Shown: positions 12,683 through 34,054 of the stretch, one piece after another
How the letters are laid out: each line of letters begins with the position of its first letter
Position numbering within the stretch: position 1 is the stretch's first letter
Source of the DNA: Chlamydiia bacterium
GTDB lineage: Bacteria; Chlamydiota; Chlamydiia; Chlamydiales; 2-12-FULL-49-11
Assembly: GCA_022601435.1 (NCBI GenBank)
Contig: JAJACQ010000034.1
Coordinates: forward strand, 28,688 to 92,687
DNA: 64,000 bases
Direction of reading: 5' to 3'
Program-made: the position numbers and the translations under genes
Notes under the pieces: model-generated
Seen by the model: the letters and a program-made list of their open reading frames with translations, nothing else
Database searches by the model: none
What the model was told of the DNA's origin: nothing

Positions 12683-13885
12683 CTATTTTAAGGCATCTAA
12701 TCCTGGAAGAGTTCCTTTTTCAATAAATTCTAAAGTAGCGCCTCCTCCTGTCGATATATGCGTAAACTTCTCCCACTTAGGAACTAGGTGAGCAGCAGCT
12801 GCTGTATCTCCACCTCCCACTATGGTCATGGCATGGCTATCGGCTAGATATTCAGCCATTGAAAGAGTTCCATTTTGAAAAGCAGAAAGTTCAAAAACAC
12901 CAAAGGGGCCATTCCAAAATATTGTTTTAGCTTTTTGAAGTATTTCCTGTAATTCAGATATAGTTCGAGGGCCAATGTCGGCACCTAAAAAACCGTCATC
13001 AATGCCTTCTTTGATAGAAACAATGGCAGTTTCTGCTTGATCAGAAAGAGTTTGCGTAATGATAATATCATCTGGAAGATGAAGAGCAATTGACTTTGAT
13101 TTGCACTTCTTAATTAAATTTTTTGCTGTGTCAATATGGGGATGATCTACTAATGAGTTCCCTACTTTATAGCCGAGAGCCGAAAGAAAAGTAAAAGCCA
13201 TAGCACCTGTGATGATTAATCCATCAATACGGTCTAACAATGATTCTAAAATTCCGATTTTTGTGGATACTTTTGCCCCACCAATAATAGCATAAAAAGG
13301 TTCCTCTGCTTGATTTAGTAGATTTTCTAAAACCAAAATTTCTTTTTCTACTAAAAATCCTGCGCCTCTTATTTCATATCGTTTAGGAAGATAGGTGGTA
13401 GAAGCATGATTGCGATGAAGCGCTGCAAAAGCATCTCCAATATATATATCTGCTAGATCAAACAAAAAGTCAATAAACTCAGGGTGATTTTCTGGATCTT
13501 CTTCACCTGGATGAAAGCGAATATTTTCAAGCATTAATAACTCACCCGGCCTTAATCGATCAGCCAGTTTTTTTGTATGACCTCCAAAATCAGCTGAAGA
13601 TAAAGCAACTTGTTGATCTAACAGATCAGATAAATGCTTTGCTATGGGATTTAAAGATAATGAAGGAATGACTCTGCCACCTGGTCGCCCAAAATGAGAG
13701 ATTAAAATACAAGAAGCGCCTGATTCTAAAATATACTTAATTGTTGATAGAGAAGATCTAATCCTTGAATCATCTGTGATCTTGCCATCTCCATCCATGG
13801 GAACGTTATAATCAACGCGAACAAGAACTCGCTTGTTCTTAAGATGAAGAGTTGTCAACGTCTTAAAGCTTTTTGCAGTGTGCAT
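12683..13885 (-). CDS. pgk: phosphoglycerate kinase
   Basis: 'VRVDYNVP', 'SHFGRPGG' and 'GGGDTAAA...STGGGATLE' are PGK signatures. Confidence 0.95.
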   Translation of the reverse strand: MHTAKSFKTLTTLHLKNKRVLVRVDYNVPMDGDGKITDDSRIRSSLSTIKYILESGASCILISHFGRPGGRVIPSLSLNPIAKHLSDLLDQQVALSSADFGGHTKKLADRLRPGELLMLENIRFHPGEEDPENHPEFIDFLFDLADIYIGDAFAALHRNHASTTYLPKRYEIRGAGFLVEKEILVLENLLNQAEEPFYAIIGGAKVSTKIGILESLLDRIDGLIITGAMAFTFLSALGYKVGNSLVDHPHIDTAKNLIKKCKSKSIALHLPDDIIITQTLSDQAETAIVSIKEGIDDGFLGADIGPRTISELQEILQKAKTIFWNGPFGVFELSAFQNGTLSMAEYLADSHAMTIVGGGDTAAAAHLVPKWEKFTHISTGGGATLEFIEKGTLPGLDALK

Positions 13886-13945
13886 AGAATCAACCTTTAC
13901 GATCTAAAGTACCATAACCCCTTATTATTTTTTTAACAAGGTTAA

Positions 13946-14114
13946 TTTTGGCGAGCTTTGTCACTATCGCCTACCTCCGAGTACCACTCGTACACTATCG
14001 GTAAGCGCTAGAACAAATCTCATCCAAAAATTTTGGCGATCTTTGTCACTATCGCCTCCCTCCGAGTACCACTTGTACACTATCGGTAAGCGCTAGAACA
14101 AATCTCATCCAAAA
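13946..14114. repeat. tandem direct repeat, two 84-nt units (period 85) of an intergenic element family
   Basis: Units at 13946-14029 and 14031-14114 differ at 3 positions. Each starts TTTTGGCGA and ends TCATCCAAAA. Internal hairpins: GGCGA(12 nt)TCGCC and CGAG(TACCA)CTCG. Confidence 0.9.
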
Positions 14115-14262
14115 TACAGCCCTCTTTAACCATCTCCTAAAATGTTTTAATAACCGATTTAATGTAGAAGTCAAAAAGAACCTTCATTCATTTCCGTAAT
14201 AAAAAATGTACTTGAGGAGTTTAAATATGAAAAATCACCAAAAAGACACACAAATTTCTAGA

Positions 14263-15012
14263 TTATAGGTTTTTGAAAGGGTTATTGGCTTCGAAAAAAG
14301 GTTTTTGCTTTCTTCTTCTTTTTCTTTCTTTTTGAATAGAGAATAATAAATCCTCATCAAAGTCTTGATGTCCTGCCCAATGAAGGTAATCAATAGGAAT
14401 TTCTCTAAACATATAGCCACGATACTTTCCGAAAGGAAAAGTCTTCATTTCAACAGGTTTTGATAATCTTTTTAAGAGCTCTTCAGTCGTTTTAAACCCT
14501 AGGCAAAGTTTTTTAAAGACTTTGATGTTAACGATCACATCATTCATGGCTCTATGAGCTCCTTCTTCAGGAATATTAAAATGCTCACGTAAAACTTCTA
14601 ATGAATTTTTTGGGCTCTCGCCATATAGACGGGCTAATCTTAATGTATCTATTACAGGATTTGAGGCAATAGACTTTGGGTGATTGTGTCTTCTAAGCGC
14701 AGCTTCAATTATTGCTATATCAAAACCAACATTATGACCCATAATTGGATAATCACCAATTAAGTCGGTGGCCTCATCTAATAAAGATTCAATATATGGC
14801 TTATTTTGCACCATCTCATCAGTAATATGGTGAATAGCAATAGATTCAGGTGGTATAGGTCTTTTTGGATCGACTAAAGCATCTAAAGATCCTATCTCTT
14901 TATCGAATGTAAACTTAATTACAGCCAGCTCGATAATTTCATCATTTGCAGTGTCAAGCCCTGTTGTTTCGCAGTCAAGACATATAAGTGTGTCAGTTTT
15001 TAATTGCCCCAT
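14263..15012 (-). CDS. DnaQ-like 3'-5' exonuclease (DEDDh) with C-terminal 'FGKYRG' domain
   Basis: ExoI 'LDCETTGLD', ExoII 'GHNVGFDI' and ExoIII 'HRAMNDV'. The C-terminal 'FPFGKYRGYMFREIPIDYLHW' is a small conserved tail domain. Confidence 0.8.
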   Translation of the reverse strand: MGQLKTDTLICLDCETTGLDTANDEIIELAVIKFTFDKEIGSLDALVDPKRPIPPESIAIHHITDEMVQNKPYIESLLDEATDLIGDYPIMGHNVGFDIAIIEAALRRHNHPKSIASNPVIDTLRLARLYGESPKNSLEVLREHFNIPEEGAHRAMNDVIVNIKVFKKLCLGFKTTEELLKRLSKPVEMKTFPFGKYRGYMFREIPIDYLHWAGHQDFDEDLLFSIQKERKRRRKQKPFFEANNPFKNL

Positions 15013-30685: not shown

Positions 30686-31630
30686 ATGCTTTTTTCTGGT
30701 AGAGCATATTACAATCTTCTCTGGTTAGAGAGGGGGCGAGGCAAATTGATTCCTGCAGAAGAGTGGGAATATCTCGATTATAGAGAGATTGAAACCTCAG
30801 TACTTTTTAAAATGATGCATCAATATGAAATAGTATTTGATACTGAATCTTTTATTGAATATTGTGATGAACTTGATTCTCCTGAAGATTTTCCTGAAAC
30901 GTTGCAATTAAATGAAGAGGATAAAAGAAAGGTTTACTTGATTGCTTTTGAGCTTTGGCGACGTCTTTTGCCGAAAGAGTCAATCTCAGTTTTTTGTGAT
31001 GAACTTGATTATACAATAGCATCCTATGAAAAAGATAAAAATTCAAATAGGCTTTTGTTTTTACTTCAAAAGATGAGGGATATTTTAGATCAAAATGTAG
31101 CTTTTGATGAAGACCCCCAAGTTATTTTTAAACGCTTGTGCCTTTATGTTGCTCATGATCTAGAAAATGTTATCTATACTTACATAAACTCTCAACTAGG
31201 TGAATCACAAGATCCTTATGTCGACCTTCTAGATTCTTTTATGCCATACGTAAAAGAAAAAAGAGCTTTGCTTTTTTTAAAGTTGAAAAGTATTAACGAT
31301 GTTTTTGAAGAAAAAGACTGTTTAATGGAATATTTATGTGGCTCATTGCAAGAATCAGTCAATTTCTCACTCTCAGTGGCGATGCTGTTTTTCTTAATTG
31401 AGAAAAATAAAGATGAGCTCTTTAAAGAACTTTTTTCTTTCTTAGTCACTGAAATTAAAGAAGAAAAGCTTCTTGTAACTTTATTAGATGTACTAATTGC
31501 CTACCACCAACAAATGGGGCACAAAGATATGAAAGAACAAGTTTCTGAATTTTTACAAAAAAAGCTTAAAAGCAATAGAAAAACAAAGCTTACAAAAGTT
31601 CAGAAAAATAAAGTACTTTCATTCTTATAA
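30686..31630 (+). CDS. hypothetical protein (helical, acidic)
   Basis: A 314-aa ORF divergent from the pseudopilin operon. No motif recognised. Confidence 0.55.
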   Translation: MLFSGRAYYNLLWLERGRGKLIPAEEWEYLDYREIETSVLFKMMHQYEIVFDTESFIEYCDELDSPEDFPETLQLNEEDKRKVYLIAFELWRRLLPKESISVFCDELDYTIASYEKDKNSNRLLFLLQKMRDILDQNVAFDEDPQVIFKRLCLYVAHDLENVIYTYINSQLGESQDPYVDLLDSFMPYVKEKRALLFLKLKSINDVFEEKDCLMEYLCGSLQESVNFSLSVAMLFFLIEKNKDELFKELFSFLVTEIKEEKLLVTLLDVLIAYHQQMGHKDMKEQVSEFLQKKLKSNRKTKLTKVQKNKVLSFL

Positions 31631-32380
31631 AAGTTGAATAGGACAAAAATTTAAATAATCACACGCCGTACACAAATAGCGCGTGCCGTCTTTTTCAAAA
31701 TTTACAGGTGCATCAGGAAACAAATTGTGCAAATGGCCATATATACAAAAATCAATACTATAGTCCTTAATAAGTCTAGAAAACTCATTGTCAGATCTAT
31801 CTGGAGGGATAGGGGGGTAATGTATCATTAGGATCTTGTGCTTTGCGTTGTGATCCATCGCATCTAAACTTCGAGCTAATCTATCAAGCTCATTATTAAA
31901 GATTCTTGTGTCATGACGCACAGTATCATCATCATACTGCTTCTTCTTAATGTTAACCCCGTCTATCTCTTTCATATCGATAAACTTATAATAGTTCAGA
32001 TCAGGATGATCCCATAATCGGGTGCCGCCAATTGTTATATCATCTATTGTAATAGCGTCATTATTAATAATTTGAATAGATGGAGGTAAAAGCTTGCGAA
32101 CCTTAGAAGGTGACTTCCACCAAAGGTCGTGATTCCCCTTGCTCATAATTTTTTTTCCAGGAAGCGACTCAATCCAATTAAGATCCGGCATCAGCTGATC
32201 AGCTTTTAATGCCCAGCTAATATCACCACATATCAAAACAAGGTCCTCAGCTGCAACCAGCTGCTCCCATTGTTCCTTAATTTTTTCAGGGTGATTAAGC
32301 CATTTGTCTCCGAATACGTCCATTTTTTTATTAGGAGTACCAAAGGACAAGTGCAGATCACCCAATGCCCACACTCTCAT
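31625..32380 (-). CDS. calcineurin-like metallophosphoesterase
   Basis: The motifs 'GDLHL', 'GDISW', 'GNHD', 'IHYPP' and 'GHLHN' occur in canonical order. Confidence 0.85.
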   Translation of the reverse strand: MRVWALGDLHLSFGTPNKKMDVFGDKWLNHPEKIKEQWEQLVAAEDLVLICGDISWALKADQLMPDLNWIESLPGKKIMSKGNHDLWWKSPSKVRKLLPPSIQIINNDAITIDDITIGGTRLWDHPDLNYYKFIDMKEIDGVNIKKKQYDDDTVRHDTRIFNNELDRLARSLDAMDHNAKHKILMIHYPPIPPDRSDNEFSRLIKDYSIDFCIYGHLHNLFPDAPVNFEKDGTRYLCTACDYLNFCPIQLL

Positions 32381-32392
32381 AGTTACAGCATA

Positions 32393-32442
32393 GGTCGGAA
32401 GGTAAATTTATTTAAAGTATTAAATAAATTTACTTTCCGACC
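32393..32442. repeat. 50-nt near-perfect palindrome (23-bp stem, 4-nt loop)
   Basis: GGTCGGAAGGTAAATTTATTTAA-agta-TTAAATAAATTTACTTTCCGACC has 22 Watson-Crick pairs plus one G.T. It starts 13 nt upstream of the phosphoesterase ATG on the minus strand. Confidence 0.9.
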
Positions 32443-32462
32443 GTTGGGGGGTGGGGGCGTCT

Positions 32463-32562
32463 TTTGGCGTCTTTTTTTTATCTCAGCCTTGCAGGTACTA
32501 CCTGTACATGCTGCGGCCGAGATAAAAAAATTCATCCAAAATACATCCCCCTTAATCCCTAT
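32463..32562. repeat. third copy of the intergenic element family (conserved ends, different hairpin core)
   Basis: The ends are shared with 13946-14114: TTTTGGCG ... TCATCCAAAATACAnCCCnCTT. The core forms TTTTTTATCTCAGCC/GGCCGAGATAAAAAA (15 bp, 1 mismatch). The central CAGG(TACTA)CCTG corresponds to CGAG(TACCA)CTCG in the other copies. Confidence 0.75.
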
Positions 32563-32772
32563 TCTAGAATTAATCAAACAACATGAAAATAAAATGAGTT
32601 ATGAGTTAAAAGGGTGGGTCAGTTTTGTAACCAGAGTATCCTTTGGTTCGCATGGCCCACACTCATATTATATGAATGATGTACTATTTACAGATAAGAG
32701 TCTTATATTCATGCACTATCTATACTTATTTTATTTTTTGCGTGTACGCAAAAAATCAAACATGGGTTTAGA

Positions 32773-32814
32773 AAGGGTCTTTGACCCTTCTCAGGGTTTG
32801 GGACAGCGTCCCAA
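32773..32814 (-). terminator. two adjacent 7-bp stem-loops just after the glgC stop (putative terminator)
   Basis: AAGGGTC-ttt-GACCCTT at 32773-32789 and TTGGGAC-agc-GTCCCAA at 32798-32814. The glgC stop codon is at 32819-32821. There is no long U-tract. Confidence 0.4.
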
Positions 32815-32818
32815 GAAC

Positions 32819-34054
32819 CTATGCAGATAAGCGTTGCTTATTTTCGACAATAGAAAAATTCTTTGGAACGGTGGCGCCCTGCTTGACGATGATGATCCCG
32901 TCCTTTATCATGACGGGTCCGAGGTCGGTATCGGGAAGGGGTGTACCGTGTAAAGAGAGGTCTGCTCCTGATTCTATGGTAGCATTTTCATCTACGATGA
33001 CTTTTTCTAAGAAGCAATTTTGTCCTATGTATGACATCCCATCTTTTGAAATTGTTCCGAGACTTAATACTCCTGTAAGAATCGATCCTTCTCCAATCGA
33101 GGTGTTTAACCCGATAAGCGAGTGAGATATCTGCTTTGCTTTTATAATACAACCATCTGTAATTACTGACTTATCTATGAGACAATTTTCTATCATCGCA
33201 GGTGGTAGGGTTGATGCATCTGTGTGTAGGGCTTTTTCTTTATTAAATATATTTAGTGAGGCACTACTTTCTAAAAGCTTTAGGTTTGCCTTGTAATAGG
33301 ATTTAATTGTTCCAATGTCTTCCCAATAGCCATCAAATATGTAGGCATATGTATTCTTTTTTGACAGTTGCCTTGGGATAATATGCATTCCAAAGTCTAT
33401 ACCCTTATCTTCTTCTAATAAAGCGATCAAAGCTTCTTTCTTAAAGATATATATCCCCATTGAGCCTAAAAATATCCGCTCATTTATCTCATGAATCTTA
33501 CTGGACTGATTACGCGATAGAGAAAATCTTTGTAAGAGACTTTCTTCTTGAGGTTTTTCTTTGAAATCGATGATTTCTTTCTTATCATCAATCTTCATTA
33601 CACCCATTCTTGTTGCTTCTTCCTCATCTATCGGAAGTGTAGCTATTAATAGATCGCAATCTTTTTCTTGAGCGTCCATGAGCATCTCATCTAAATCCAT
33701 GGAATAGAGTTGATCTCCTGATAAGATGATCACATGATCTGCCTTTGTCTTTTTTAAAAGATCTAAATTCTTTCTAATTGAATCTGCTGTCCCTTCATAC
33801 TGACTCTCTTTTCCTGTTAATACAGAAACACTTTCACCATAGGCTTTTTTGATATAGTCATTTAAAGAAGAGCTTAAATATTGTGTTACAGCATAGATGT
33901 GCTTAAAATCTTTCTTTAAAGCATTAGAAAGTGCAATGTCTATAAGACGATAGCGCCCTGCAAATGGCACGGCAGGCTTGCATCTATGTGAAGTTAAAGG
34001 AGATAACCTAGTTCCTTCACCGCCGGCAAGAACAAATATGATCGGTTCAGACAT
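32819..34054 (-). CDS. glgC: glucose-1-phosphate adenylyltransferase
   Basis: 'LAGGEGTRLSPLTSHRCKPAVPFAGRYRLIDIALSN' and a C-terminal left-handed beta-helix region. Confidence 0.9.
   Translation of the reverse strand: MSEPIIFVLAGGEGTRLSPLTSHRCKPAVPFAGRYRLIDIALSNALKKDFKHIYAVTQYLSSSLNDYIKKAYGESVSVLTGKESQYEGTADSIRKNLDLLKKTKADHVIILSGDQLYSMDLDEMLMDAQEKDCDLLIATLPIDEEEATRMGVMKIDDKKEIIDFKEKPQEESLLQRFSLSRNQSSKIHEINERIFLGSMGIYIFKKEALIALLEEDKGIDFGMHIIPRQLSKKNTYAYIFDGYWEDIGTIKSYYKANLKLLESSASLNIFNKEKALHTDASTLPPAMIENCLIDKSVITDGCIIKAKQISHSLIGLNTSIGEGSILTGVLSLGTISKDGMSYIGQNCFLEKVIVDENATIESGADLSLHGTPLPDTDLGPVMIKDGIIIVKQGATVPKNFSIVENKQRLSA

Follow-up and report, generated by a model that had tools for sequence, protein, structure and literature searches.

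Introduction

The Correia (NEMIS) elements of Neisseria, the ERIC (IRU) sequences of enterobacteria and the RUP and BOX elements of pneumococcus are miniature inverted-repeat transposable elements (MITEs) of approximately 100–150 bp with a long hairpin potential. They are inverted repeats over their entire length, reside in untranslated regions (UTRs) and intercistronic spacers, are co-transcribed and can act as substrates of RNase III or modify mRNA stability, while BOX elements form modular arrays. MITEs carry terminal inverted repeats matching those of a parent insertion sequence (IS), and are accompanied by target-site duplications (TA in the case of Correia). In the current study we analysed a stretch of 64,000 nucleotides from a Chlamydiia bacterium (GenBank assembly GCA_022601435.1, contig JAJACQ010000034.1, positions 28,688 to 92,687; hereafter the window), in which a tandem pair of 84-nt hairpin units precedes the gene pgk and a third unit is present at another locus. 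On balance, we regard these units as members of an undescribed, lineage-restricted family of interspersed palindromic repeats that moves or duplicates in uncultured Chlamydiia; the best reading is that the family is REP/MITE-like in its behaviour only.

REP sequences are defined as palindromes of 20–40 bp with a stem of 5–13 bp and an unpaired GTAG or CGTC tag, which occur mostly as inverted (head-head) dimers and for whose spread a single-strand, hairpin-dependent mechanism without target-site duplication has been proposed (PMC3733652). The Rickettsia palindromic elements (RPEs) are likewise CGTC-tagged (PMC3733652). The 84-nt family resembles the REP and BIME sequences, which are mobilised by RAYT Y1 enzymes in Enterobacteria, Pseudomonas and others, in that its members are intergenic, multicopy hairpins whose copy sets differ between related genomes, and which form clusters, frequently lie downstream of genes and could plausibly be transcribed into RNA hairpins. 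It differs from REPs in the size of its units (84 nt with 26–31 pairs), in the unit ends, which read UUUUGG.../...CCAAAA preceded by ..T(T/G)A in place of a tag (CGTC adjoins the third window unit only), and in its arrays, which are head-to-tail and not inverted. With MITEs the family shares a similar size range and a whole-element fold, the unit being an imperfect inverted repeat in which the terminal 6–7 nt pair; unlike MITEs, it lacks target-site duplications, a parent IS is absent from the window and from the relatives' loci examined, and its copies within one genome differ almost wholly in stem sequence while their pairing is kept. RPEs, which are palindromic repeats spreading in the genomes of an obligate intracellular lineage, represent a different sequence family and are often located in-frame inside genes, whereas all members of the 84-nt family seen are intergenic.

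Among the roles that a preliminary description of this DNA had listed for the units, a REP/MITE-like repeat is the best supported, although the REP size, tag and inverted dimer and the MITE target duplication are absent. Since these defining features, together with those of attC sites discussed below, are missing, the family is classified here as one that works like such elements and not as a member of any of them. Full-text literature searches on palindromic or MITE elements of Chlamydiae returned nothing relevant beyond the general REP survey (PMC3733652), and none of the results described small repeat families from environmental Chlamydiia.

Three hairpin units in the window

The preliminary description reported two 84-nt tandem units, differing at three positions, between two co-directional minus-strand genes (those of an RNase_T-family exonuclease and of PGK), together with a third family member, and these statements hold. 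Tandem Repeats Finder placed a repeat of period 85 at 13944–14114 (2.0 copies, 96% matches), while the pattern TTTTGGCG-N(45-75)-TCATCCAAAA matched exactly the three window units, here designated W1, W2 and W3, where none was expected (100 shuffles). The differences between W1 and W2 fall at plus-strand unit positions 10, 28 and 44 (3/84). The 'tail' said to follow both unit 2 (W2) and the third copy on the plus strand (TACAGCCCTCTTTAACC and TACATCCCCCTTAATCC, respectively) indeed consists of similar sequences, which on the minus strand form a purine-rich 5' leader. The minus strand was taken as the sense direction since it folds better than the plus strand in all three window units. The features of the two loci are as follows.

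W1: 13946..14029, minus strand; second unit in the sense direction and pgk-proximal, with 3 differences from W2 and without a leader of its own
W2: 14031..14114, minus strand; first unit in the sense direction, with the sense ends UUUUGGAUGAGA...GAUCGCCAAAA and an exact pattern match
Array leader: 14115..14131, minus strand; purine-rich, 5' of W2, sense GGUUAAAGAGGGCUGUA, aligning with the other leaders
UUAACC: 13940..13945, minus strand; directly 3' of W1, could pair with GGUUAA of the leader as an outer stem around the array
W3: 32462..32541, minus strand; third member, with a different stem sequence and an alike architecture
W3 leader: 32542..32558, minus strand; purine-rich, 5' of W3, sense GGAUUAAGGGGGAUGUA

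Each unit (80–84 nt) folds as one long imperfect hairpin of 26–31 base pairs, in which the ends TTTTGG and CCAAAA pair. Folding energies on the minus and plus strands were −35.5 and −23.3 kcal/mol for W1 (z = −5.8), −29.1 and −17.7 kcal/mol for W2, and −34.5 and −30.1 kcal/mol for W3 (z = −6.9 on the minus strand); z lay between −4.1 and −6.9 for the window units, with the exception of the plus strand of unit 2 (z = −2.65). In the sense direction the unit can be summarised as 5'-UUUUGG-AUGA...apical GURC-N5-GYAC...CG-CCAAAA-3', with the purine-rich leader in front. The base of the hairpin is conserved, UUUU(G/A/C)G pairing with C(C/U/G)AAAA and being followed by a bulged A and then by UG/CG; the arms, U-rich on the 5' side and A/G-rich on the 3' side, vary in sequence among copies and retain their complementarity; and the apical stem-loop U-GURC-N5-GYAC-U is again conserved, with a purine-rich internal loop between it and the 5' arm. 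The conserved non-Watson-Crick features are the bulged A, a U.U beside the apex, the purine-rich internal loop and a U.G wobble. The short hairpins GGCGA..TCGCC and CGAG..CTCG described earlier find no support as structure, and the whole-unit hairpin with its covarying apical GURC-N5-GYAC stands in their place.

Similarity between W1/W2 and W3 is confined to the base, apex and leader, their stems being wholly different and equally well paired. The leader is short, unpaired and purine-rich in most members, is weakly conserved in sequence (array GGUUAAAGAGGGCUGUA, W3 GGAUUAAGGGGGAUGUA, L098 GGAUAAGAGGAAUAAG and L100 AGAGGGGGUUA, where L0xx designates contigs from other assemblies) and ends in T(T/G)A in most members. 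The UUAACC/GGUUAA outer stem is present in the 216-nt fold; other members do not have it, and its significance is uncertain.

As stated in the preliminary description, the units encode no plausible protein, there being no open reading frame (ORF) that is conserved among members. A mini-ORF ATG-(xxx)-TAT-TTT-GGA-TGA (M(x)YFG followed by a stop) at the junction of leader and hairpin, present in four of five early members and absent from L098 and L100, was rejected, as were ORFs starting at the internal AUGA, which differ in length, stop after 6–50 codons and are not conserved. A K-turn or box C/D motif (GGAUGA...) was likewise discarded, the required GA/CUGA being missing on the 3' strand by sequence reading.

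Compensatory changes and the folding strand

With a covariance model (R2) built from 10 members, the 10 distinct members reached 69–92 bits, and none of the reverse complements exceeded 27 bits. Applied to the 64-kb window, the model detected exactly three copies, with scores of 84.7–90.2 bits for W2 with its leader, 49–69 bits for W1 and 83.5 bits for W3 (against 26.6 bits for the antisense strand of the latter). In the model-guided alignment (n = 10 distinct members), standard pairs occupied 90.4% of cells, as opposed to 44–56% where the 3' partners were slid by 1–3 columns, and both-sided changes were found in 11 of the 21 consensus pairs; the observed values were reached by none of 500 shuffles. 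Covariation is evident in the closing stem (UUUUGG/CCAAAA, UUUUAG/CUAAAA and UUUUCAG/CUGAAAA) and in the apex (GUAC/GUAC or GUGC/GCAC). Each genome has a single apex type, GUAC being present in all three window copies and in L094, and GUGC/GCAC in L093, L098 and L100-XC.

The sense strand was the more stable strand in seven of nine members and, over nine members, contained 19 G.U pairs versus nine on the other strand; one U.G wobble position was kept in 8 of 10 members, and the use of DNA folding parameters left the strand ordering unchanged. Compensated pairing, combined with the strand bias in G.U pairs and stability, shows that the selected form is single-stranded and strand-specific (RNA or ssDNA, single-stranded DNA) and not a symmetric duplex site. 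GC skew suggests that the plus strand is the leading strand, in which case the lagging template would expose the weaker-folding antisense strand; this concerns two loci and carries no weight.

With its conserved ends and apex, compensated variable stems and strand-specific fold, the family resembles attC-like 'structure-coded' elements more than it does ordinary MITEs, and on account of this pattern it is a reasonable candidate for having a new hairpin-recognising protein partner. Like attC sites, the units have a conserved paired base, a bulged or unpaired spacer, a variable stem with extrahelical bases in which structure and not sequence is conserved, a variable apex and a strand-specific fold. 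That they are themselves folded single-strand recombination sites, the base serving as the crossover site and the bulges marking the strand, is nevertheless very unlikely: RYYYAAC...GTTRRRY boxes are absent from the sequence, no integrase is encoded in the window, no gene cassettes separate the units, which can abut or lie 25–60 nt apart, and Rfam in E-value mode found nothing.

Somewhat more broadly, and still as a rather doubtful proposition, the hairpin could be the recognition module of an undescribed Chlamydiia system, in which a dedicated protein acting in trans reads a structured RNA or folded ssDNA. The recognition surface would then comprise the bulged A, the fixed U.G wobble, the apical stem with its flanking U.U and the purine-rich internal loop, and the switch of the apex between GUAC/GUAC and GUGC/GCAC from genome to genome would appear as if it were co-evolving with the protein. 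Such a system may be a new form of hairpin-dependent transposition or recombination without target duplication, or else a post-transcriptional regulon with a protein-binding hairpin in 5' UTRs (those of pgk and of the glgC-adjacent phosphoesterase gene). The family would gain in interest if a dedicated binding or mobilising protein, or a role at RNA level in pgk or phosphoesterase expression, were demonstrated.

Occupied and empty sites in related Chlamydiia

Syntenic contigs of related uncultured Chlamydiia were reached via PGK and GlgC homologues, and approximately 200 kb of the clade was examined. The gene order from RNase_T to pgk is conserved. The intervening spacer measures 377 nt in the window genome and 70, 88, 166 and 78 nt in four relatives (PGK 88, 87, 82 and 81% identical, respectively), none of which carries a member in this position. 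The spacer between glgC and the phosphoesterase gene is filled in L098 (GlgC 78% identical; L098:12016-12120, 74–87 bits), while being short and empty in L099 (GlgC 70% identical, 125 nt) and L100 (67%, 119 nt). W3 and its L098 counterpart are approximately 60% identical across the unit and are both still perfect hairpins; the L098 member, as W3, precedes a second AT-rich hairpin ahead of the start codon.

At other loci, an array of two intact and several partial units follows a guanylate-cyclase gene (L093:1199-1456), a three-unit head-to-tail array follows secA (L100:3158-3516), a degenerate copy that is antisense to both neighbours lies beside argS (L094:1020-1124), and a copy of the 5' half is situated 85 nt upstream of the intact unit in L098 (L098:11950-11980). 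The arrays (the window pair and those of L093 and L100) are all head-to-tail, with units that abut or are 25–60 nt apart, and no R2 members were found in L096, L097 and L099.

The first approximately 840 nt of L093:1-1700, a long-read contig from ENA, mirror positions 860-1700 as their reverse complement; with a further RNase_T gene in inverted orientation towards its opposite end, the contig is probably a fold-back or chimeric assembly artefact. Owing to this fold-back the L093 array was counted once, and its fine structure is to be read with caution. In the 166-nt spacer of L096 (PGK 82% identical), an unrelated hairpin of approximately 80 nt (AGAGCCC...GGGCUCU, L096:9855-9935) occupies the position of the tandem pair; in view of this unrelated hairpin, the RNase_T|pgk spacer may be prone to the acquisition of palindromes.

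The search of the window and of relatives, and the covariance model, thus revealed further members at other loci, which identifies a repeat family and not a one-off duplication. While the two pgk-proximal units are a local duplication, the notion that there is nothing beyond this is practically untenable, given a third copy at a distance of 18 kb and eight more members at other loci in four related genomes.

At the other extreme, the same 22 terminal bases were encountered in hairpins of Akkermansia and of rumen Clostridia/Eubacterium metagenome-assembled genomes (MAGs), where the pattern TTTTGGCG-N(50-80)-TCATCCAAAATACA matched full-length hairpins in L086, L088, L089 and L092. A family extending across phyla is, however, highly improbable, for the nine matches in 596 Gb of GTDB genomes approximate chance expectation, five of the nine are not hairpins, and R2 gave the hairpins 22–29 bits as compared with 69–92 bits for real members. 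These hairpins share nothing beyond the pattern-forced bases and possess neither the leader nor the apex motif. Non-hairpin chance matches in L087 and L083 scored 16–18 bits under R2, with the other three below the reporting limit; one further match to the 22-base end pattern was found in JGI metagenomes. One of these hairpins, an 84-nt structure conserved over three assemblies (L088:6405-6585, L089 and L092), lies directly downstream of a near-consensus promoter (TTGACA-17-TATATT) and upstream of a cytidylate-kinase-like gene; its match to the pattern is a coincidence, but it may itself be a leader element.

The large-collection scans employed an end-anchored pattern that is specific to the variants of the window genome. 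BLAST against plasmids and phages gave no match; in viral contigs, two family-specific patterns returned one chance match (17.5 bits, inside an ORF) and no members, and an 18-base pattern returned at least 80 chance matches. Rfam 15 at gathering thresholds found only three tRNAs in the whole window, and in E-value mode its best matches over 13850-14300 were at chance level (16–20 bits against thresholds of 34–111). ARAGORN found no tRNA or tmRNA at the locus.

Proposed mode of spread

The favoured reading of a repeat that moves or duplicates is based on its confinement to one lineage, on loci that differ from genome to genome, on orthologous sites that are empty, on arrays, and on half or decaying copies. 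We propose that the units would spread by a hairpin-dependent single-strand mechanism that is supplied in trans and resembles the one suggested for REPs (PMC3733652), the obvious candidate being a transposase of the Y1/HUH type that uses folded ssDNA as its substrate. A process of this kind is suggested by the strand-specific fold, by the unpaired leader ending in T(T/G)A at the base of the hairpin and by the lack of target duplication.

Arrays would then enlarge through local tandem duplication, and the pgk-proximal pair is a recent case in which the bare hairpin was doubled (3 of 84 nt different, one leader for both units). The recent duplication that had been deduced from the near-identity of the tandem copies fits these data, given that the hairpin was duplicated without its leader. 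In Logan accession SRR15145662, an independent assembly of the same genome, contig L002 starts 134 nt upstream of pgk, inside W1, which is where a collapse of the assembly graph is expected if the tandem duplication is real.

A number of observations weigh against this interpretation. Pfam searches detected no transposase, integrase or reverse transcriptase among essentially all window ORFs of at least 136 aa or among the unknown ORFs beside members in L093, L094 and L098, no IS elements were present in the window or in the relatives' loci examined, and the 64-kb window holds no RAYT gene; we purely infer the mobilising enzyme, as none is encoded in the window or was seen in the loci inspected. 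Visual comparison of the aligned flanks of 10 members revealed no target-site duplication: left flanks end in ..TTA or ..GTA and right flanks begin with GAA, GAC, TTA or CTC, with no direct repeat. Nor is a clean junction between filled and empty sites definable, the divergence of the orthologous spacers precluding an alignment.

Furthermore, W1 and W3 share only their ends and apex, which is not the picture left by a typical MITE after a recent burst and rather recalls elements whose structure has long been under selection. The non-Watson-Crick features look like a protein-recognition surface, and a functional RNA fits them equally well. An intact member occupies the glgC|phosphoesterase spacer in two genomes with only 78% identity between their GlgC proteins, which suggests either selective retention or repeated insertion/conversion. 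Finally, with approximately 200 kb of the clade searched, any copy number per genome is an extrapolation.

A defined family with a covariance model would provide a marker for the typing of strains and lineages as well as a handle for tracing the mobilising enzyme, and the family could explain assembly breaks such as that of the Logan contig which ends inside W1.

Genomic context and possible functions at RNA level

By gene content, the window represents ordinary core chromosome. The host is an uncultured Chlamydiia MAG, to judge from the PGK identity given below and from a TLC nucleotide transporter gene that adjoins the pgk region. The genes and signals flanking the units are as follows.

pgk: 12683..13885, minus strand; PF00162, downstream of the tandem pair, its product being 100% identical to the PGK annotated as 'MAG: Chlamydiia bacterium'
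RNase_T-family exonuclease gene: 14263..15012, minus strand; PF00929 (E = 2.8e-34), upstream of the tandem pair
Calcineurin-like metallophosphoesterase gene: 31625..32380, minus strand; flanks W3 on the side opposite glgC
AT-rich long hairpin: 32393..32442, minus strand; between W3 and the phosphoesterase start codon, not a member of the family
Promoter-like TTTTCA-17-TAGAAT: 32561..32589, minus strand; just upstream of the W3 leader, from a consensus scan with 9/12 matches
glgC: 32819..34054, minus strand; flanks W3

As the copies are located within transcription units or beside them, their transcription into stable RNA hairpins is likewise probable, and this may as a side effect alter the processing or stability of mRNA. 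If transcribed in the leaders of pgk and the phosphoesterase gene, they would add approximately 100–200 nt of very stable structure to these mRNAs, and expression could differ from that in sister lineages which lack the insertion. A possibility of appreciable, though lesser, weight is that function at this level is primary and spread secondary, the units being cis-acting structured RNAs of 5' UTRs and intercistronic regions whose base and apex would serve as a protein-binding site or as a target of RNase III cleavage, thereby controlling the stability, processing or translation of the neighbouring genes.

This is consistent with the strand-specific fold and its conserved U.G wobble, bulged A, U.U mismatch and purine-rich internal loop, and with the fact that at both window loci the folding strand is the sense strand of both flanking genes. 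W3 and its L098 counterpart, moreover, retain their hairpins at approximately 60% identity between the promoter-like TTTTCA-N17-TAGAAT and the phosphoesterase start, and an apex stem type that is constant across the loci of a genome and differs between genomes is what co-evolution with a trans-acting factor would yield. On the other hand, the neighbours (pgk, phosphoesterase, cyclase, secA and argS) are unrelated, close relatives carry the same genes without the element, in L093 and L100 the arrays are found behind terminator-like modules where two genes converge, both neighbours of the L094 copy run antisense to it, and partial and decaying copies occur. Gene orientation is not significant either, as it is informative at two to three loci only. 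A ToxI-like array of a type III toxin-antitoxin system was rejected as an identity, the downstream genes being pgk, the metallophosphoesterase gene or unrelated convergent genes and not an endoRNase toxin gene.

Tandem copies of small RNA (sRNA) genes are known in other bacteria, and the units might conceivably be independent genes for trans-acting sRNAs, each composed of leader and hairpin under its own promoter and with the purine-rich leader as seed. From its sequence, TTTTCA-17-TAGAAT directly upstream of the W3 leader is a putative promoter, and most members possess a purine-rich leader that is unpaired. We nevertheless consider such genes quite improbable, since no intrinsic terminator or U-tract follows any unit, W1 lacks a leader or promoter of its own, nothing promoter-like was found upstream of the W2 leader, and the leader sequence is weakly conserved. 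No promoter/terminator pair encloses the units.

The absence of a U-tract directly after the hairpin on either strand, the unit ending in ...CGCCAAAA (sense) and ...CAUCCAAAAUACA (antisense), also removes support from the suggestion that the units are a termination module, and an intrinsic terminator was rejected. A terminator scan called none at the pgk locus, and the calls made at the third copy pair a GGGGG run with the first bases of the unit and do not involve the unit hairpin.

In the empty-site relative L099, TTTTCA-N16-TAGAAT is kept directly before the phosphoesterase start codon. In both L099 (2770-2825) and L100 (11330-11370), which have no insertion, this start codon lies approximately 10–20 nt past a TAGAAT −10-like box, implying that the phosphoesterase mRNA of these two lineages would be very short-leadered or leaderless; the window gene, by comparison, has a highly structured leader of approximately 190 nt. 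A long AT-rich hairpin (L098:12126-12181) occupies the same relative place in L098 as that at 32393..32442 in the window, and the two are not alignable.

Additional repeats and structured elements

A hairpin GUGGGCC...GACCCAC followed by CC(U)UUU lies between glgC and the phosphoesterase gene, and is kept in all four lineages, including those without the 84-nt element, and may represent either the terminator of glgC or a structured RNA of another kind. Its positions are as follows.

GUGGGCC hairpin: window 32608-32660, minus strand; L098:11345-11400; L099:2718-2765; L100:11280-11318

A second, unrelated repeat family is located directly after stop codons, with copies in the window (32730-32792, minus strand, after the glgC stop), in L093 (1105-1190), in L100 (3070-3150 and approximately 4793) and in L101 (1920-1991). 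It is made up of a hairpin CCAAAGGGU-CAAAGA-CCCUUUGG and a linker AA(A/U)CCCA-N5-UGA, and its arrangement of A-tract, GC-hairpin and U-tract resembles that of a bidirectional terminator. In L093 and L100 the 84-nt arrays begin immediately 3' of this module.

Elsewhere in the window, a 120-nt tandem repeat (57792-58313; 4.3 copies, 95% matches) was found within a 538-aa ORF without a Pfam match (56843-58459, minus strand), whose product is probably a repetitive acidic or serine-rich protein.

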